A stretch of 64,000 bases of DNA from an uncultured Clostridia bacterium (GTDB lineage Bacteria; Bacillota; Clostridia; UMGS1883): positions 66,089 to 130,088 of the forward strand of contig CANQRB010000006.1 of NCBI GenBank assembly GCA_947626145.1, in the 5' to 3' direction. The position numbers and the translations under genes were made by a program. Positions 2,787 to 60,643 of the stretch are shown in pieces. Every line of letters starts with the position of its first letter. Within the stretch, counting starts at the first letter, position 1. Under the pieces are notes generated by a model that made no database searches, was not told the origin of the DNA, and saw only the letters and a program-made list of their open reading frames with translations.

Positions 2787-2847
2787 TGTTGTTTTCCTCC
2801 TTTTTTTGCTGTCATGCGGGGTGTGTTTCACCGTTAGCGCAATGGGT

Positions 2848-2998
2848 TTGATTTATGATTTCGTTTATCATTGTCAGCATAAATGTTTGATGGCGGACGC
2901 CCAATGGGCGCCCCTACGGAGTTCAAGTCACGCAGCGGGAACAGTCAAGGTAACTGCAATATTCATTCCTCATTCCTCATTCCTAACTCCTAATTCCG
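2848..2998. repeat. Partial copy of the dispersed intergenic element (70-bp module M1 plus heptamer array)
   Basis: gatttatgatttcgtttatcattgtcagcataaatgtttgatggcggacgcccaatgggcgcccctacgg is followed by attcctc attcctc attccta actccta attcc at 2960-2998, abutting the stop of the topoisomerase B gene. Near-identical copies are at about 5588-5660 and 6440-6509. Confidence 0.6.
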
Positions 2999-3000
2999 CC

Positions 3001-5007
3001 TTACGAGACGTCCGTCAAATCAATATATCTGCTGCCGTTTTCTGCGATAAAGTCCTTCCTTCCGGCCAGATTGTCCCCAAGCAGCAGGTCGAACATGGCC
3101 GCCGTGGCCTCGGCCTCCTCGGGCATTATCTGGATAAGGCGGCGGGTCCTGGGGTTCATGGTGGTGCGGCTCATCATCTCGGGCTCGTTCTCGCCCAGGC
3201 CCTTGCTCCGCTGGATGTCCACACCCTTATCCGGCAGCTTGGAAAGAATCTCGGCCTTTTCCTTTTCGTTATAAGCGAAATAGGTTTTGTCCTTATAATT
3301 TATCTCGAACAGGGGCGACTCGGCGATGTAGACCCTGCCCTCCTTTATCAGTGTGGGTATGAGACTGTATATCATGGTTATGACCAGAGTGCGGATGTGA
3401 TAGCCGTCAAAGTCCGCGTCGGTGCATATTATTATCTTGTTCCAGCGCAGATTGCTCAGATCGAAGTCGGCGAACTCCTTGTTGGCTCTGGTCTTGACCT
3501 CGACTCCGCAGCCCAGCACCTTTATAAGGTCGGTGATGATGGGGCTGCCGAAAATTTTGTCATAGTCGGCCTTGAAGCAGTTGAGTATCTTGCCCCTGAT
3601 TGGCATAACCGCCTGAAACGCCGCATCCCGGCCCAGAACCACGCTGCCCTTGGCGCTGTCGCCCTCCACTATGTAGAGCTCGCGCTCGTTCACGTCCTTG
3701 CTGCGGCAGTCCACAAACTTCTTGACCCGATTGGTAACGTCCATGGCGGCGCCCAGCTTCTTCTTCATGTTGGTGCGGGTCTTTTCGGCTGTCTCACGGC
3801 TCCGCTTGTTCAGCAGCACCTGGGCCCCGATGCGCTCGGCCTCGGGGATATTTTCGATGAAATATACCTCCAGACTGTGGCGGATGAAGTCGGTCATGGC
3901 CTCCTGAATGAACTTGTTGGTGATGCTCTTCTTGGTCTGGTTTTCATAGCTGACGGTGGTGGAGAAGCAGTTGGTCACCAGCACAAGGCTGTCGGCCACG
4001 TCGTTCCAGGTTATCTTGCTCTCGTTTTTATTGTATTTGGAATTTTGCTTGAGCCAGGCGTCGATGGCGGAGACAAAGGCGCTCTTGGCGGCCTTTTCCG
4101 GAGCGCCGCCGTGTTCGAGAAAGCTGCTGTTGTGATAGTACTCTATCCGTTGCACCTCGTTGGAAAAGGCGAAGGCGAAGCTTATCTTCACCTTGTACTC
4201 GGGCATATCCGCCCGGTCGCTGCCCTTGCGCTCGCCGCTGTAAAAGGCGGTGGAGTTCAGAGCCTTGTCCCCGATCAGCTCGTTGACGTAATCGACGATG
4301 CCGTTTTCGTATTTGTACTCGAACCTTTTGATGCCCCCGTCCCCGTCGTGGTAGGTGAGCTTAAAGGCGATGCCCTCGTTCACCACGGCCTGACGCTTAA
4401 GGCTGTCCTGAAAGAACTCAAGGGGGATTTCAATGTCGGTAAAGACCTCAAGGTCGGGCTTCCACTTGATAGAGGTGCCGGTGCCCCGATACTTCTTTTC
4501 CTCCTTGAACAGGCCGCCCACGTTCTCGCCCTTCTGGAAAAAGAGCTTGTACTCGTACCCGTCACGGTGGATCACCACGTCCATATACTCCGAGGCGAAC
4601 TGGGTGGCGCAGAGGCCAAGGCCGTTGAGGCCAAGAGAGTAAAGGTAGCTCTCGTCCTCGCCCTTGTCGTACTTGCCGCCGGCGTACATCTCGCAGAACA
4701 CCAGCTCCCAGTTGTAGCGCTGCTCTCTGGCGTTCCATTCCACGGGGCAGCCCCGGCCGTGGTCTATGACCTCGATGGAGTTGTCGGCGTAGCGTATGAC
4801 CTCGATAACGCTGCCGTGGCCCTCCTTGGCCTCGTCAATGGAGTTGCTTATTATTTCAAAAACGCTGTGCTCGCAGCCCTCGAGCCCGTCGCTGCCGAAG
4901 ATAACTCCGGGGCGCTTGCGAACCTTGTCGGGGCCTTTGAGCATGGTTATGCTTTCGTTGCCGTAGGATCTCTTAGCCAAAACCATCTGTCCTTTCAAAA
5001 ACAACAT
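3001..5007 (-). CDS. Type IIA DNA topoisomerase subunit B (ParE/GyrB-like)
   Basis: 668 aa with a GHKL ATPase N-terminus (VFEIISNSIDEA), a TOPRIM region (EGDSAKGS...) and the C-terminal PLxGK motif. Its A-subunit partner is at 61051-63225. Confidence 0.85.
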   Translation of the reverse strand: MLFLKGQMVLAKRSYGNESITMLKGPDKVRKRPGVIFGSDGLEGCEHSVFEIISNSIDEAKEGHGSVIEVIRYADNSIEVIDHGRGCPVEWNAREQRYNWELVFCEMYAGGKYDKGEDESYLYSLGLNGLGLCATQFASEYMDVVIHRDGYEYKLFFQKGENVGGLFKEEKKYRGTGTSIKWKPDLEVFTDIEIPLEFFQDSLKRQAVVNEGIAFKLTYHDGDGGIKRFEYKYENGIVDYVNELIGDKALNSTAFYSGERKGSDRADMPEYKVKISFAFAFSNEVQRIEYYHNSSFLEHGGAPEKAAKSAFVSAIDAWLKQNSKYNKNESKITWNDVADSLVLVTNCFSTTVSYENQTKKSITNKFIQEAMTDFIRHSLEVYFIENIPEAERIGAQVLLNKRSRETAEKTRTNMKKKLGAAMDVTNRVKKFVDCRSKDVNERELYIVEGDSAKGSVVLGRDAAFQAVMPIRGKILNCFKADYDKIFGSPIITDLIKVLGCGVEVKTRANKEFADFDLSNLRWNKIIICTDADFDGYHIRTLVITMIYSLIPTLIKEGRVYIAESPLFEINYKDKTYFAYNEKEKAEILSKLPDKGVDIQRSKGLGENEPEMMSRTTMNPRTRRLIQIMPEEAEATAAMFDLLLGDNLAGRKDFIAENGSRYIDLTDVS

Positions 5008-5099
5008 AAAATATTAATATATATTTTACCATAAATCTGCCGTTATGTCCATACCTATTTTTATTTTTTTGTATGTTTTGTGCGACGGGCAGGACGTTT

Positions 5100-5810
5100 A
5101 AAATTAGGAATGAGGAATAAAGTGCGCATAAATTTTATTTGTCATAGGGAATGTTAGACGGTAGGGCGCGACGACTCGGCGCGCCGCAGTGTTAGCGACA
5201 GTAACAATGACAAGAAATAAGCCTTCTCCTTGAGGAGAAGGTGGCGCGTCAGCGACGGATGAGGTGTAGGACGCGAAAGCGTCCGTTAAAATAAACAGAT
5301 AAAAAATAACGCCGCACGGCGGCTACACCTCATCAGTCGGCCTTCGCCGACAGCTTCCCCTTGAGTAAACGCTGATTAAATAACGCCTACGGCTCAGCAC
5401 GACGCCTGACGGCCAAATTTCCCCGATACTGCGTCAAAAATGCTCGAAATACATCAAGTATTTCTGCGCTTTTTTCCTTGTCTCGTGAAAATTATGTCTC
5501 GCCAATCGCCGCACTGTATTTAATCAGTGTTTACTTGAGGGGAAGCCTTTACATTATTTGTCATTTTTACCATAAGATGGCGCAAAGAGTTTTGATTTAT
5601 AATTTCGTTTATCGTTGTTAACATAAACGTTTGATGGCGGACGCCCGATGGGCGCCCCTACGGTATCAAGGTTACGTTTGCGGTTTCGGCGCGCCGGGGT
5701 CGTCGCGCCCTACCGAATATTTGTCATTCATACTTATTGCATAAATTCACATTCCCATGACAAATAAAACCGCCGCACAACCTATTCCTCATTCCTAATT
5801 CCTAATTTTC
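5100..5810. repeat. About 700-bp non-coding element bounded by roughly 90-bp terminal inverted repeats (MITE-like, mosaic)
   Basis: Left end: aaaattaggaatgaggaataaag...ttttatttgtcatagggaatgt...ggtagggcgcgacgactcggcgcgccg (5101-5195). The right end (5690-5808) is its reverse complement, with heptamer arrays at both tips. The interior carries module M1 (5588-5660), GC palindromes (ccttctccttgaggagaagg, ggacgcgaaagcgtcc) and no ORF over 60 aa. Confidence 0.6.
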
Positions 5811-6194
5811 CACTCCTATCTCATTAAGCGCAAACTCCACAGCGGCATTATATATCACTCCGACAAAAAACGGCACATAAATCTCCGGCCCGACGTCGTT
5901 CCGCAGCATAAGCCAGCTCAGTCCGGCAAGGATCACCGTCCGGGGCAGACTCCGCAGGGACAGGGCCGTCAGAGCGGCGGCCGTCAGCGCCCAGAACATC
6001 GGCACGCTGTCCCCCGCCGCCAGCGTCCCCACTGCGGCCAGCAGTCCGCCCAGCACAACGCCGTACCAGCGGCAGACCGGCGGCCTCGGCAGGGATACGA
6101 ACAGGGCGGCGCAAAAAAACATCAGTCCCTCCCGCCATACGCCCAGAAGGGCGCAGATTCCCAAGCCAAAAAGCACAGCGAAATATTTTTTCAT
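5802..6194 (-). CDS. Hypothetical small membrane protein
   Basis: 130 aa and hydrophobic with 3-4 predicted TM helices. The RBS GGGGGGAG lies upstream of ATG 6192-6194. Its stop codon sits inside the heptamer repeat array. No recognisable family. Confidence 0.4.
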   Translation of the reverse strand: MKKYFAVLFGLGICALLGVWREGLMFFCAALFVSLPRPPVCRWYGVVLGGLLAAVGTLAAGDSVPMFWALTAAALTALSLRSLPRTVILAGLSWLMLRNDVGPEIYVPFFVGVIYNAAVEFALNEIGVEN

Positions 6195-6353
6195 GACGGC
6201 ACTCCCCCCTTGAGTAAACTTCCATATTTCAAGTGTTGCCGCCGCGGGCCGTCAATATTCTTTAAAAATATAGTTTGGTAATTTTCGAAAAATGTTGGGG
6301 CAAAATATTGACAAGACACGGAATGTGTGGTATAATCAGGAAAAGACGGAAGA

Positions 6354-6582
6354 GAATGAGGAATTAGGAGTGAGGAATTAGGAATAAAGCGTGCGTCAGT
6401 TTTGTTTGGCGTTTTTACCTTAAGGCCGTATAGGAAAATCCGATTGATAATTTCGTTTATTATCGCCGCCGTAAACGTTTGATGGCGGACGCCCAATGGG
6501 CGCCCCTACGATACCCTGTATTATAACTACCCCACCAATCACCATTTATTCCTCATTCCTCATTCCTAATCCCTAATTTTCC
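6354..6582. repeat. Small inverted-repeat-bounded intergenic element (heptamer array - M1 module - heptamer array)
   Basis: gaatgag gaattag gagtgag gaattag gaataaag (6354-6389) ... M1 copy (6440-6509) ... ttattcc tcattcc tcattcc taatccc taatttt (6546-6582) in inverted orientation. The element ends 15 nt before the hflX RBS. Confidence 0.6.
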
Positions 6583-6598
6583 CAAAGGAGGCACACCC

Positions 6599-7855
6599 AT
6601 GACCGAAAAAACAATCGAACGCGCCATACTCTGCGGCGTACACCGTGATTTGCCGGACAGAACCGAGGACACCACCGACGAAACCATCGCCGAGCTGCGG
6701 GAGCTGGCAAAGACCGCCGGAGCCGAGGTGGTGGGCGTGATGGTGCAGAATAAGGATCACCCCGAAACCGCCGCTTACTTCGGCGAGGGAAAGCTGGAAG
6801 AATTAAAATCAGCCATAGCCGCTCTGGAGGCCGACCTGCTGATCTTCGACGACGAGCTCACCGGCAGTCAGATAAGGAACATCGAGGACATCACCGGCGT
6901 TCGGGTGATAGACCGCAGCACCCTTATTCTGGACATTTTCGCCTCCCGGGCCCGGTCTAAGGAAGGCAAGATACAGGTGGAGCTGGCCCAGCTCAGGTAC
7001 AACCTGCCCCGGCTGACGGGGCTTGGAACTCAGCTCAGCCGTCTGGGCGGCGGCATCGGCACACGCGGCCCCGGCGAAACAAAGCTGGAAAGCGACCGCC
7101 GCCACATTCACCGGCGTATCGAGGCCCTTGAGGAGCAGCTCGCCGAGGTGGAGCGCCACCGGGAGCTGCTGCGCGGGCGGCGCACCAAGGACGGGGCCGT
7201 CACCGCCGCTCTTGTGGGCTACACCAATGCCGGCAAGAGCACCCTTATGAACAAGCTCACCGGCTCGGACATCTTCGCGGCGGATATGCTCTTCGCAACC
7301 TTGGATCCCACCGTCCGCTCCCTTGAGCTTTCCGACGGGCGGAACGCCGTCATTGTGGACACCGTTGGCTTTATACGCAAGCTGCCCCACCATTTGATAA
7401 AGGCCTTCCGCTCCACCTTGGAGGAGGCCGCCGAGGCGGACGTGCTCATTCACGTTATCGACGCTTCCGATCCGGAAATGCAGACCCACATCGCCGTGGC
7501 CGACGACCTGCTGGAGGAGCTGGGCTGCAAGGCCGCCCGCACCGTGGCCGTGTTCAACAAATGCGACATCGCTCCGCCCCTGTCTCCCCGGCCCAGAGGC
7601 CGGTACACCGACTATGTGTCGGTCAGCGCCGCCACCGGCGAGGGGCTCGACCGGCTCATGGAAATTTTGGAGGACGCCCTCCCCGGCAAAAAGCGGGAGG
7701 TCAGTCTGCTCTTCCCCTACTCCGACAGCGGCGAAGCCGCAAGGCTCTACGACACCGAGGTAATTCTTGAGGAGGAGTACACCGACGCCGGAATAAAAAT
7801 GCGTATCCTCGCAGATGAGGCCGTGTACGCAAGGGTCAAAAAGTGGGAAGCGTAA
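6599..7855 (+). CDS. hflX: GTPase HflX
   Basis: N-terminal HflX domain plus G domain GYTNAGKSTLMN, DTVGF and NKCD motifs. RBS AAAGGAGG. Confidence 0.9.
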   Translation: MTEKTIERAILCGVHRDLPDRTEDTTDETIAELRELAKTAGAEVVGVMVQNKDHPETAAYFGEGKLEELKSAIAALEADLLIFDDELTGSQIRNIEDITGVRVIDRSTLILDIFASRARSKEGKIQVELAQLRYNLPRLTGLGTQLSRLGGGIGTRGPGETKLESDRRHIHRRIEALEEQLAEVERHRELLRGRRTKDGAVTAALVGYTNAGKSTLMNKLTGSDIFAADMLFATLDPTVRSLELSDGRNAVIVDTVGFIRKLPHHLIKAFRSTLEEAAEADVLIHVIDASDPEMQTHIAVADDLLEELGCKAARTVAVFNKCDIAPPLSPRPRGRYTDYVSVSAATGEGLDRLMEILEDALPGKKREVSLLFPYSDSGEAARLYDTEVILEEEYTDAGIKMRILADEAVYARVKKWEA

Positions 7856-8384: not shown

Positions 8385-9197
8385 TTACCATTCAACGACC
8401 TCGTCCACAATTTTCCGCTGCTCCATGGACGTTTTCCGCAAATACACACGGGTGGTCTCAATGTTGTCATGACCCATCAGGTCGGCCAGAAATGCGATGT
8501 CGTTGCAGCGCTCAAGAAAGCTTTTGGCGAAGCGGTGACGGAAGGAGTGAGGATAGACCACCGCCGGATCGATGTTGTAACGCTCGGCAAACTTTTTCAG
8601 CTGGGCGGATATGCCCCGTGAGGTTATGCGCTGGCCCCGCTGGTTGAGAAAAACAAAGCCGGTGCCGCGCCTCTCCCATTCCAGCCAGGTCAGGGCGTCG
8701 GCCTGAAGGGCCCGGGGCACGTAGATACGCCTGAACTTGCCGCCCTTGGTGTACAGATCAAGATGGCCGGCCCTGACGTTCTCCACCTTAAGCTGGAGGA
8801 GCTCGCTTATTCTGGCTCCGGTGGCCCCAAGAAACCGCACCACGAAGTACCACGAATACTCCTTGTCCTGAATAAGGCAGCTTTTGAGGTAGTCGTAGTC
8901 GGCCTCGCTGATAACGTTTTCCAGAAAGGTACTCTGCTGCTCCTTTACGAAGCTCTGGCGCCATTTTCCCCTGCCGATGAAATCAAGGTAGAGATTTATG
9001 CCGCGGATACGCAGGTTCACGGTCTTGGGCCTGTACCTTGCAATGAGGCTCTGGCGATAGCTCTTGAGGTTTTTCAGACTGAGCTTTTCGTATTCTTCCT
9101 GATACTGGCGGACGGACGCCAGATATGAACGGATCGTGTTTGCCGAAAAACTGGTGCCGTTAAGATGGCACTCGAATTCCTCGATTTTTTCCAACAT
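8385..9197 (-). CDS. Site-specific tyrosine recombinase (XerD/phage-integrase family), standalone
   Basis: Catalytic residues in context: R..HxxR (HSFRHRFAKS) and terminal Y (TTRVYL). N-terminal SAM-like domain. Start at ATG 9195-9197 with AGGAGG upstream. Confidence 0.8.
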   Translation of the reverse strand: MLEKIEEFECHLNGTSFSANTIRSYLASVRQYQEEYEKLSLKNLKSYRQSLIARYRPKTVNLRIRGINLYLDFIGRGKWRQSFVKEQQSTFLENVISEADYDYLKSCLIQDKEYSWYFVVRFLGATGARISELLQLKVENVRAGHLDLYTKGGKFRRIYVPRALQADALTWLEWERRGTGFVFLNQRGQRITSRGISAQLKKFAERYNIDPAVVYPHSFRHRFAKSFLERCNDIAFLADLMGHDNIETTRVYLRKTSMEQRKIVDEVVEW

Positions 9198-9298
9198 TTC
9201 AAAATCCTCCTTATGTATAATCTCAGGCAATGGGGAGCTGAACACTGCGCGGCGCACGGGGTAAACTCCACATTACCCTAAGTAAAGGGAACCGCTCT

Positions 9299-12230: not shown

Positions 12231-13084
12231 AAATTTTCACTCCCCCACACGTGGGCCAGCAGCTCGGGAACGCCGTCCATAAGTCCAGCGTACTCCGGAA
12301 AATCCCGGCGCAGGCGGCGGACACAGCGGCCGCAGTACTCCGCCCGCACCGCCGGATCGGAGCGCAGATTATTCTTATGGCCCCACACATGAGTCACGTC
12401 GCTCTGTTCACGGAGCCTGTCCAGCCGAAGGAGGGTATGTATCTCCTTTCCCTTTTCGGCGGCGCACATGGACAGGAGCCGCTGCTCGGCAAAGACCATG
12501 GGAACCACCACGCTGCCGTCCTCACGTAAATTTCTCATAAAATCCACACTTCGGCGGACGTAATAATCACGGAACTCCAAATCCTTTATGTACAGAAAGG
12601 CCGTGTTGCAGGGCAGGACGCCCCAGTCCCAATCGGGGAAGGTATAGCCCTCCTTCATGCGGAAATGCTCCCTGCCGGGATAGATGTCCGGCATCAGCTC
12701 CTCCCGATGGGCGGCCACGATGTCAAGGTTCCCCAGCTCCCGACAGTCCCGCCACACTATCATGTCCGTATCTATCATGCATACTGGCTCCGGAACGGAG
12801 TTCAGGGCCCAAAGCTTGCCGCCCGCCCAGAATAAAAACGGGTCAATATCCGCCGGTACGGTATCCAGCGCCTCGGTCACGCCGCCGTCCCACAGGGGCT
12901 CAAGGCCCCGTTCACGAAGATAAGCGGCTCCGGCGCCGTCGGTGACCATGGTGACGCCGCCGCCGTTTTTCCGCCAGACAAGAGCCGACAGCATCATCGT
13001 CAGCAGCTCAAAGTCCTCCATGTAAAAATCCCTGCCGCCACGGACAAAAAACGGCCTCGTCCAGAGGGAATGTATGGCCTTCAT
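12227..13084 (-). CDS. Putative GT-A fold glycosyltransferase (DXD sugar-binding type)
   Basis: N-terminal IHSLWT resembles the IHQIW motif of GT32/toxin-type glycosyltransferases. MIDTDMIVW supplies the DXD. Overlaps both neighbours by 4 nt. Confidence 0.4.
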   Translation of the reverse strand: MKAIHSLWTRPFFVRGGRDFYMEDFELLTMMLSALVWRKNGGGVTMVTDGAGAAYLRERGLEPLWDGGVTEALDTVPADIDPFLFWAGGKLWALNSVPEPVCMIDTDMIVWRDCRELGNLDIVAAHREELMPDIYPGREHFRMKEGYTFPDWDWGVLPCNTAFLYIKDLEFRDYYVRRSVDFMRNLREDGSVVVPMVFAEQRLLSMCAAEKGKEIHTLLRLDRLREQSDVTHVWGHKNNLRSDPAVRAEYCGRCVRRLRRDFPEYAGLMDGVPELLAHVWGSENL

Positions 13085-13548
13085 ATCAGCTCAAGGCCGT
13101 AGCCGAAGGAACCGCCTCCGCTGCCGGAGCCTGAGCCGGAACCCGAACCGCTGCCGGAGCCGCTGCCGCTGGTGGGATTTGCGGGACGGGCGGCAAAAAG
13201 CCTCGCCGCAACGTACTCGTCCTCCTCGCGGGTTATGGCCAAATTCATGGAAAGCCGCGACGCGGGCGGAAATCTGAGCCGGCAGACCTCGCGGCCCTTA
13301 AGGGCGGTCTCGGCCTCCTCCACAAAGGGGGCGTATCTGTCCTCAAAGTACAGCAGACCGACATCGGCCCTGTTATAGCGCTCCCTCATCAGGGCAAGCA
13401 GCTCGCCCAGCCGACCCACGGGCCTGCTCCGCCGTCCGCCGGCGGGGAACGGTACAAAATATCCCTCGGATAACAAATATGTATAGCAACGCTCGTTAAA
13501 AAACATAAGCAACAGTTTCATCTTGACAGTCAGCCCTTCCGTAGGCAT
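13081..13548 (-). CDS. Hypothetical protein with C-terminal (SG)8GGS low-complexity tail
   Basis: 155 aa. The tail TSGSGSGSGSGSGSGSGGGSFGYGLELI is encoded by non-identical codons. No signal peptide. Confidence 0.45.
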   Translation of the reverse strand: MPTEGLTVKMKLLLMFFNERCYTYLLSEGYFVPFPAGGRRSRPVGRLGELLALMRERYNRADVGLLYFEDRYAPFVEEAETALKGREVCRLRFPPASRLSMNLAITREEDEYVAARLFAARPANPTSGSGSGSGSGSGSGSGSGGGSFGYGLELI

Positions 13549-40739: not shown

Positions 40740-41468
40740 TTATACATCCGCCTCGTCGCTTGCCACGAAGCGTCCGTGACGCTTGCCGCCAAAGCCGCGA
40801 AGGTCACCGCTCTCAATCTTGGCAATTATCTCGTCATATTGCTCCTGTGTCAGCTCGCCGGAGGCAAGCTTCTCATCCAGCTTTGTTTTGGCGTTCTCCG
40901 CCATCTCGGCTTTCTGCTCCTCGGTCAGTTCGGGCCTTTCGCCCATGATGCCGTGACGCTTGCCGCCGAAGCCGCGAAGGTCGCCGCTATCGATCTTGGC
41001 AATTATCTCGTCATACTGCTCCTGTGTCAGCTCGCCGGAGGCAAGCTTCTCGTCAAGAGCCGCCTTGGCGTTCTCCGCCATCTCGGCCTTCTGCTCCTCG
41101 GTCAATTCGGGCTTCTGTATTCTTTCGGCCTTAACGGCTCCCTCGGGGAGCTCGGGCCTTTCGCCCATAATGCCGTGACGCTTGCCGCCGAAGCCGCGAA
41201 GATCGCCGCTCTCGATCCTGGCAATTATCTCATCGTACTGCTCTTGTGTCAGCTCGCCGGAGGCAAGCTTCTCATCCAGCTTTGTTTTGGCGTTCTCCGC
41301 CATCTCGGCTTTCTGCTCCTCGGTCAGTTCGGGCTTCTGTATTCTTTCGGCCTTGACCGCGGCGGGGCTGAGCTTTGTCGCCGGAACGCTGTCGGCGGCA
41401 ATTACGGGTACGGCGGCCAGCATGAGAGCCGACATCGCCGCTGTGAGTTTAATTGAGATCCTGTTCAT
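40740..41468 (-). CDS. Secreted protein with three tandem ~65-aa SHOCT-like repeats
   Basis: Signal peptide. The unit ELTEEQKAEMAENAKxKLDEKLASGELTQEQYDEIIAKIESGDLRGFGGKRHG occurs three times, with about 200-bp DNA period. AGGAGGT RBS. The + strand ORF 40404..41456 is antisense. Confidence 0.55.
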   Translation of the reverse strand: MNRISIKLTAAMSALMLAAVPVIAADSVPATKLSPAAVKAERIQKPELTEEQKAEMAENAKTKLDEKLASGELTQEQYDEIIARIESGDLRGFGGKRHGIMGERPELPEGAVKAERIQKPELTEEQKAEMAENAKAALDEKLASGELTQEQYDEIIAKIDSGDLRGFGGKRHGIMGERPELTEEQKAEMAENAKTKLDEKLASGELTQEQYDEIIAKIESGDLRGFGGKRHGRFVASDEADV

Positions 41469-52224: not shown

Positions 52225-52605
52225 GTTGTTAACGTAAACCGTACAGCGGCGCGCCGGGGTCGTCGCGCCCTACCGTGGTATTTGTCATTGTTACTAAGGT
52301 ATGTAAATGCCGCACGGTTAAGGCTTCCCCTGGAGGGGAAGCTGTCGGCGAAGGCCGACTGATGAGGTGTAGCCGCTGTGCGGCGTCAGTGTATACGTTA
52401 TGTTTAATTTTATAACGGATGCTTCGCATCCTACACCTCATCCGGCCCTGCGGGCCACCTTCCCCTCGAGGGGAAGGCTTTTGCATCGTCTGTCGTTGTT
52501 AACATAAACCGTACAGAGGCGCGCCGGGGTCGTCGCGCCCTACCGTGATATTTGTCATTGTTGCTAAAGTATGTAACTGCCGCATATTAAAGGCTTCCCT
52601 TTCAA
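52225..52605. repeat. Intergenic repeat block: two ~100-bp direct repeats sharing modules with the 5100-5810 element, plus perfect GC palindromes
   Basis: gtcgttgttaacRtaaaccgtacagMggcgcgccggggtcgtcgcgccctaccgtgRtatttgtcattgtt occurs at about 52230-52310 and 52490-52570. Palindromes ggcttcccctggaggggaagc, ccttcccctcgaggggaagg and gatgcttcgcatc. Also ggccgactgatgaggtgtagccgc, which is the reverse complement of a segment at about 5330. Confidence 0.6.
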
Positions 52606-52622
52606 TGGGGAAGCCTTTAATA

Positions 52623-60584: not shown

Positions 60585-60609
60585 GGGAAAAATCAGATCC
60601 TTTGACGTA

Positions 60610-60643
60610 GAATTAGGAATTAGGAATGAGGAATGAGGAATAC
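60610..60643. repeat. Solitary heptamer array (GGAATKA)x5
   Basis: gaatta ggaatta ggaatga ggaatga ggaatac, between the NTase stop and the ABC exporter start. Confidence 0.55.

Follow-up and report, generated by a model that had tools for sequence, protein, structure and literature searches.

BOX and RUP of Streptococcus are modular repeats of Firmicutes. Bacterial MITEs (miniature inverted-repeat transposable elements) and modular Firmicute repeats have been reviewed (PMC3184786). Repetitive extragenic palindromes (REPs) of the GTAG-tagged kind are defined by an unpaired GTAG beside a GC-rich stem (typically 6-13 bp) with a short loop; they form head-to-head (HH), tail-to-tail (TT) and head-to-tail (HT) dimers and mosaics of the bacterial interspersed mosaic element (BIME) type (PMC3733652). 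The 2013 survey of these REPs lists Proteobacteria, Cyanobacteria, Chloroflexi and the PVC group; Firmicutes are not among them (PMC3733652). Heptanucleotide repeats are given as the most abundant class of long simple sequence repeats (SSRs) in most genomes, with polymerase slippage as the proposed origin (Mrazek 2007, as reported in PMC4679880), and in Xanthomonas, 70-75 convergent pairs of GGGAATC arrays were counted per genome (PMC4692102). The element described here combines repeats of these kinds. It occupies positions 5033-5817 of a 64,000-nt stretch of contig CANQRB010000006.1 from an uncultured Clostridia bacterium; this whole stretch is called the window.

The segment 5033-5817 is probably a lineage-specific insertion of ~785 bp at the operon junction between a small membrane-protein gene and a gyrB-like gene, in which small non-coding repeats of at least three independent kinds were nested one after another. 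Arrays of the heptamer GGAATKA would constitute a convergent pair at the periphery. An inverted pair of the module M2, a REPIN-like doublet (M3) and a single module M1 would constitute a BIME-like mosaic, and a 170-bp element with terminal inverted repeats (TIRs) and a TTGA duplication would have been inserted in a hairpin loop. That the region looks nearly palindromic would then be due to palindromic units nested in one another and not from a single element with 90-bp TIRs.

The intergenic stretch (5008-5801) lies between the gyrB-like open reading frame (ORF) (3001..5007, minus strand; Pfam DNA_gyraseB, Toprim, GyrB_C) and an ORF of 130 aa (5802..6194, minus strand) that has no Pfam match. 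An exact-protein look-up of the gyrB-like ORF returned no record. The longest ORF of the intergenic stretch has 47 aa, and the region is non-coding, as had been proposed from the absence of ORFs over 60 aa. No match to plasmids or phages was found by BLAST with 5033-5817.

Relatives were found via HflX homologues, and their contigs were fetched and compared. The site is empty in L126/L127 (HflX 88% identical in amino acids) and in L128 (90%): the small gene and the start of the gyrB-like gene overlap there, and the spacer is absent. The segment present in the window is therefore an insertion, located by junction alignments at ~5033-5817, and its left edge is placed 68 nt beyond the left heptamer array. 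The small membrane protein has 147 or 144 aa in the empty-site relatives and 130 aa in the window. In the protein alignment, the relatives end in ..EIYGKIK..FG and the window protein in ..NEI|GVEN*; the new stop codon (TAG, 5802-5804) falls in the right heptamer array, and the former C-terminal codons TTTATGGTAAAAT (= ..YGKI..) are still found at 5008-5032. The insertion thus appears to have truncated the small gene, with a loss of about 15 codons.

An assembly artefact, i.e. collapsed or chimeric repeats, is a scarcely credible explanation. The contig L001 does end within the nested 170-bp element, but the region is covered in full, at 99.95% identity, by L002, an independent contig of a different sample, which dismisses an artefact as the cause, and a recognisable homologous version is found in L124.

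L124 is the closest relative (HflX 97% identical in amino acids, about 93% in nucleotides) and carries a shorter form of the insertion. The indels between it and the window have the size of modules (37, about 66, 170 and 19 nt, and one heptamer unit): L124 is devoid of 5121-5157, of about 66 nt of M3, of 5365-5534 and of 5572-5590, and its right array has one unit more. Modules turn over at the strain level. The left flank 5033-5099, missing from the empty sites of L126 and L128, is found in L124 at 85% identity.

A reading made from the sequence only had taken 5100-5810 as a non-coding element of about 700 bp with TIRs of ~90 bp. Its main interpretation, one MITE moved as a whole by a DDE transposase, is very unlikely. 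Inverted ends are present, the region is non-coding and it is absent from two relatives. The ends comprise heptamer units, the TTTTATTTGTCAT block and a GGTAGGGCGCGACGA..CGGCGCGCC hairpin. Their inverted repeats are the heptamer units 5100-5118 / 5791-5809, a 47-nt pair with 79% complementarity and a perfect 17-nt pair (5159-5175 / 5699-5715, 17/17). They had been called near-perfect; however, when the left end is aligned with the reverse-complemented right end, the mean column identity is 76%, with a 28-nt indel and diverged linkers. Three copies of GGAATKA had been read at each end: the right array has 3.4 units, but the left one has only two full GGAAT units. The three blocks of the supposed TIR belong to separate repeat families, each of which recurs on its own: M2 occurs at 22 metagenome loci devoid of heptamer arrays, and arrays occur elsewhere without M2. 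One of these blocks (5121-5157) is missing in L124, and the edge of the insertion lies outside the left TIR. Comparison of the outer edges with the empty sites of L126 and L128 shows no clear target-site duplication, with ambiguous microhomology of 2-5 nt. The component modules recur, whereas the whole 700-bp unit is found once in the window; BLAST detected no second copy of the region there, and in the loci of the relatives, too, it is the modules that recur. The observation is thus partly confirmed and its interpretation as a MITE only partly supported.

The alternative offered by the same reading, a BIME-like mosaic, is supported: GTAG-tagged REP hairpins, alternating in orientation, make up the modules, and the GC palindromes that had been noticed are present and fold. 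In M1, M2 and both halves of M3, the folds show an unpaired GTAG directly adjoining a GC-rich stem-loop of 5-8 bp. Two details deviate: the stem of one M3 half has 5 bp only, and the loop of M2 is long (10 nt) with an inner 2-bp pairing. The arrangement is inverted both in the M3 doublet and in the M2(+)/M2(-) pair. An outer stem of 11-12 bp closes the M3 doublet (dG -26.5 kcal/mol, z = -7.3). M1, M2 and M3 match the definition of GTAG-tagged REPs assembled in a BIME-type mosaic.

These modules are dispersed. M1 (5580-5663), the copy already noticed from the sequence, recurs in the window at 2837-2919 (89% identity) and at 6402-6513 (77%); a further copy, in L126 (8307-8385), keeps the hairpin with another stem sequence. 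The M2 hairpin (5160-5186, 5687-5715) recurs at 52243-52295 and 52518-52560; compared with the 27-mer consensus (GGTAGGGCGCGACGACCCCGGCGCGCC), the copy 5160-5186 has a 1-nt deletion and one mismatch, and the three other copies of the window are exact. A composite match of 218 nt links 5158-5361 to 52546-52334 (79%). M3 has a paralogue at 52334-52546, and an M3 module is also found between the hflX arrays of L124. The motif TATTTGTCAT occurs 6 times in the window (0.06 expected), always within repeat clusters, and GTAGGGSSSS 12 times (3.8 expected), of which 7 in intergenic repeat modules.

The exact M2 27-mer was found in 22 metagenome stretches (L129-L150). Their GC content (0.39-0.67) and the absence of any megablast match to the window indicate that they belong to other organisms. 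The copies typically lie just 3′ of genes. In about half of the stretches, an inverted partner with a CTAC tail is found at a distance of 35-62 nt, as in REPINs. A 27-nt REP common to contigs of 39-67% GC suggests either horizontal spread or a tightly constrained recognition sequence.

The nested insert 5365-5534 has 18-bp TIRs with one mismatch (GTAAACRCTGATTAAATA) and lies in the TTGA loop of hairpin H2, with TTGA duplicated at 5361-5364 and 5535-5538. The uninterrupted hairpin GCTTCCCC-TTGA-GGGGAAGC (GCTTCCCCTTGAGGGGAAGC) is found at the orthologous site of L124 and in the paralogues at 52324 and 52459. This 170-bp insert therefore has the TIRs and the target duplication of a MITE, with an identifiable empty site. 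It is present in one copy in the window, and no other was found in 3.6 Mb of fetched loci; the break of contig L001 inside it hints at repetition. Independent families are thus nested in one another at this junction.

Table 1. Features of the insertion and related repeats in the window. H1, H2: hairpins. Strand is given where assigned.
Feature	Position	Strand	Evidence or remark
Remnant of the ancestral 3′ end of the small gene, now non-coding	5008..5032	-	Protein and junction alignments, promoter scan
Left flank of the insertion, AT-rich and outside the left array	5033..5099		Junction alignment, promoter scan
Left heptamer array (GGAATKA), 2 full units	5102..5120	+	
37-nt block with TTTTATTTGTCAT	5121..5157	+	Part of the left TIR of the sequence-only reading; not in L124
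M2, GTAG-tagged REP hairpin (GTAG 5161-5164; stem GGCGCG/CGCGCC)	5160..5186	+	Fold
Hairpin H1 (CCTTCTCC-TTGA-GGAGAAGG), terminator-like on the minus strand	5222..5241		Fold (z = -4.0), terminator scan
M3, two inverted GTAG hairpins as a REPIN-like doublet (GTAG 5266-5269; CTAC 5323-5326)	5253..5339		
Hairpin H2, left half (GCTTCCCC + TTGA loop), split by the nested insert	5353..5364		
Nested MITE-like insert, 170 bp	5365..5534		TIRs and TTGA duplication; absent in L124
Hairpin H2, right half (TTGA + GGGGAAGC)	5535..5546		
M1, AT hairpin (5606-5629) + GTAG-tagged REP hairpin (CTAC 5658-5661)	5606..5661	-	BLAST, fold
M2 REP, inverted partner of 5160-5186 (CTAC 5710-5713)	5687..5715	-	17/17 pair, fold
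Inverted pair TATTTGTCAT ... ATGACAAATA	5718..5766		Fold; part of the right TIR of the sequence-only reading
Right heptamer array (TMATTCC), 3.4 units	5784..5810	-	
Second, smaller array-cassette-array unit	6353..6582	+	Arrays 6353-6385 (+) and 6548-6582 (-), M1 cassette enclosed
M1 copy (2837-2919) + solitary heptamer array (2963-2997)	2837..2997	-	
Paralogous REP cluster: M2 - hairpin - M3 - hairpin - M2 - hairpin	52243..52615		
Solitary heptamer array	60609..60641	+	24 nt upstream of an ABC-transporter start codon (minus strand)

The pattern GGAATKAGGAAT, with one mismatch allowed, has 18 matches in the window (0.57 expected). They form six arrays: 2963-2997(-), 5102-5120(+), 5784-5810(-), 6353-6385(+), 6548-6582(-) and 60609-60641(+), of which 5102/5784 and 6353/6548 are convergent pairs. 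The arrays are polymorphic in length: the right array of the insertion differs from that of L124 by exactly one unit, and at hflX the window and L124 differ in the left array as well (about 5 units against 3.5). These differences fit SSR behaviour. In the fetched genome loci, tandem repeats of period 7 (344) greatly outnumber those of periods 6 (52) and 8 (55).

In a scan of species-representative genomes, (GGAATKA)x2.7 was found in at least 120 stretches from many phyla. At 120 of these loci (L004-L123), pairs of arrays within 700 nt are convergent (GGAAT...ATTCC) in 28 cases and divergent in 4, and the spacers between paired arrays are often hairpins. The scan, compared with a rough expectation of ~17 stretches, suggested a cross-phylum machinery specific for GGAATKA. 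This was rejected because control heptamers are about equally frequent: in viral contigs (L151-L433), GGAATKA occurs in 115 stretches and the composition-matched heptamers GAGATKA and GTGAAKA in 48 and at least 120, respectively. The convergent bias is also found in the viral loci, for GGAATKA (23 to 2) as well as for GTGAAKA (27 to 5); GAGATKA forms no pairs. In both of these purine-rich heptamers the purine-rich arm is 5′ and the pyrimidine-rich arm 3′, and the pairs often flank a GC hairpin. The orientation bias may reflect a bidirectional-terminator architecture. Binding arrays for CsrA, HutP/TRAP-like proteins or Hfq were rejected: the arrays lie on both strands, they occur in phyla devoid of these proteins and their spacing is wrong. 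A conserved RNA helix between the array arms is not supported, the K positions not co-varying and the pairing not being kept unit by unit. No relevant paper was found in a literature search for the heptamer strings of the GGAATKA arrays. Beside the solitary array 60609-60641, the segment 60613-61036 carries an MNT-type nucleotidyltransferase ORF (Pfam NTP_transf_2/Polbeta) followed by an ORF of 50 aa that ends in the array. By eye, the N-terminus of this 50-aa ORF looks HEPN-like, without Pfam support, and the array may have truncated a toxin gene here.

The second array-cassette-array unit (6353-6582) is found in the 5′ untranslated region (5′UTR) of hflX, between a perfect TTGACA-17-TATAAT promoter (6308-6336) and the ribosome binding site (RBS) and ATG (6599) of the gene. 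As RNA, its arrays would pair into a stem of ~40 bp beside the RBS (dG -82.5 kcal/mol, z = -5.4). The hflX 5′UTR of L128 is a plain one of 35 nt devoid of arrays, and that of L126 contains a different, unrelated hairpin-rich insert of ~200 nt. L124 has the same arrays with another cassette, homologous to 5219-5361 of the window (M3-type) and not to M1. The promoter-RBS interval of hflX is a hot spot (window 6308-6601; L124 1100-1415; L126 5660-6010; L128 4190-4340). A tyrosine recombinase (Phage_integrase, 8385-9257) is encoded near hflX in the window and in L124/L125; it is not found in L126 or L128.

Since the hflX arrays hold M1 in the window and an M3 cassette in L124, convergent array pairs could be portable docking hairpins in whose centre REPIN-type cassettes insert or are swapped. 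This proposal has a small chance of being right. If it were true, docking hairpins would be a modular cassette system that rewires 5′UTRs and operon junctions in Clostridia, and its driver might be an enzyme other than a classical REP-associated tyrosine transposase (RAYT). The system may then apply across phyla, as two different purine-rich heptamers share the strong convergent-orientation bias.

Another possibility is that the mosaic is kept mainly as a regulatory cassette, either a terminator plus a new promoter that uncouple the two genes or a set of structured small RNAs, with repeats as raw material. A promoter scan gave a candidate for the gyrB-like gene, with a -35 box TGGACA (5051-5046, minus strand) and a -10 box TAAAAT preceded by an upstream TG (5028-5023); the motif TGGACA-17-TAAAAT is conserved in L124. 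Terminator-like hairpins were predicted on the transcribed strand (5241-5222, 5323-5311). The strong folding of the modules, that of M3 in particular, and the stem predicted beside the hflX RBS are also consistent with such a role. However, the relatives do without the insert, even the two closest strains differ in its content by large indels, and the numbers of promoter and terminator matches equal those expected from shuffled sequence. A covariance search of Rfam at the gathering and E-value thresholds gave no match (best sub-threshold E = 0.056). Retention as a regulatory cassette is therefore unlikely.

More doubtful still is a scar at a hot spot of recombination or integration, where a larger mobile element would have integrated or excised and the repeats would be its leftovers or attachment-site debris. 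This is suggested by L125, whose HflX protein is that of L124: in its segment 1-1313, the right-hand M2 REP has an HTH_3 gene and another ORF immediately to its left, and at that place L124 and the window carry the remainder of the mosaic and the gyrB-like gene. A 13-nt match (GACATAACGGCAG) also links the left edge of the insertion in the window to a hairpin in L125. Nevertheless, L125, 4.5 kb long and of low coverage, stops before its neighbourhood becomes visible, and the junction at the repeat could be chimeric; the arrangement reflects a larger insertion or, alternatively, a false joining of sequences at that repeat. Furthermore, the modules are dispersed repeats and not unique debris. 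The left edge CTGCCGTTATGTC (5033-5045) is the exact reverse complement of L125 1230-1242, one arm of a terminator-like hairpin located 3′ of the HTH gene.

For the nested insertion of independent repeats, the preferred reading, the following steps may be proposed. REP-type modules would be mobilised in trans, as single-stranded hairpins, by a HUH enzyme of the RAYT/IS200-like kind encoded elsewhere. Arrays would expand and contract through replication slippage, and the cassettes between them could be swapped via recombination or re-insertion. The insert would have put terminator-like hairpins behind the small gene, and the gyrB-like gene would have acquired its own hybrid promoter, with a -35 box from the insert and a -10 box from the old coding remnant.

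Several points weigh against this reading. It does not account for 5033-5099, and the outer edges show no target duplication. The 170-bp element is single-copy in all sequence searched. The promoter and terminator calls on which the last two steps rest are as frequent in shuffled sequence, and GTAG REPs were unreported for Firmicutes in the 2013 survey (PMC3733652). No gene for a Y1/RAYT-like or other transposase was found in the 64-kb window and the loci of the relatives with partial Pfam searches and approximate tblastn queries. The tblastn search (approximate IS200 and YafM queries, about 200 kb of own and related loci) found nothing and has a low weight. Among ten uncertain ORFs submitted to Pfam, the tyrosine recombinase 8385-9257 alone was found, and the window showed no other recombinase. 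Nothing was found that links it to the repeats.

Other tandem repeats of the window lie within ORFs. Repeats of 69 nt (834-1301, 6.8 copies) are found in ORF 764-1945, which encodes a Cu_amine_oxidN1 domain and seven MORN repeats and whose GC content at third codon positions (GC3, 0.50) is far below that of neighbouring genes. Repeats of 177-222 nt with 90% identity (40774-41354) lie within ORF 40740-41468 (three SHOCT-domain repeats). In ORF 13081-13548, a GCCGGA hexamer repeat (13123-13171) encodes a C-terminal (GS)n tract.

The region belongs to known kinds of repeats (GTAG REP/BIME, convergent heptamer SSR arrays, small MITE) and to fairly ordinary junk-DNA dynamics; the host lineage and the particular combination of repeats are new. 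The statement of the sequence-only reading that the element is of no described family is hence half right, as published work describes GTAG REPs as well as heptamer arrays in convergent pairs (PMC3733652, PMC4692102). The locus provides a case resolved step by step (empty, intermediate and filled site) of nested small repeats remodelling a bacterial operon, with visible effects: a gene truncation, the uncoupling of two genes and a putative hybrid promoter. It also widens the range of GTAG-tagged repeats of the REP/BIME type to an uncultured Clostridia lineage. The exact 27-nt REP in organisms of 39-67% GC raises the question of which enzyme recognises it, and the array observations tie this genome to the unexplained heptamer repeats of Xanthomonas and cyanobacteria.

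Compared with bacterial MITEs (PMC3184786), the nested 170-bp element likewise has TIRs and a short target duplication and lacks an ORF; unlike them, it has no cognate insertion sequence (IS) or second copy in the sequence searched, and the 700-bp unit does not have the features of a MITE. As a whole, the region 5033-5817 is modular like the BOX elements of Streptococcus. The arrays resemble those of GGGAATC in Xanthomonas (PMC4692102), the short tandemly repeated repetitive (STRR) sequences of cyanobacteria and the TAACTGA arrays of Beggiatoaceae (PMC4679880): intergenic tandems of 7-nt units in 3-10 copies, frequently in convergent pairs, of strain-variable length and in some cases just 5′ of start codons. 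They differ from these by their unit, GGAAT(T/G)A, which is devoid of G-quadruplex potential, and by the strain-variable REP-type cassettes enclosed by the pairs. With the GTAG REPs, REPINs and BIMEs of E. coli, Pseudomonas and Stenotrophomonas (PMC3733652, PMC2817692, PMC3116915), the modules share the unpaired GTAG beside a short stem-loop rich in GC, the extragenic location and the presence in multiple copies, with several families per genome; they lie mostly downstream of genes and form inverted dimers and mosaics with other motifs. In contrast to these, no RAYT gene was seen in the sequence examined (about 200 kb, approximate queries), and the M2 pair of the window is about 500 bp apart instead of 20-100 bp. 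The host is an uncultured Clostridia/Oscillospiraceae-like organism, and its REPs are embedded with heptamer arrays, the ATTTGTCAT motif and a nested MITE-like insert.

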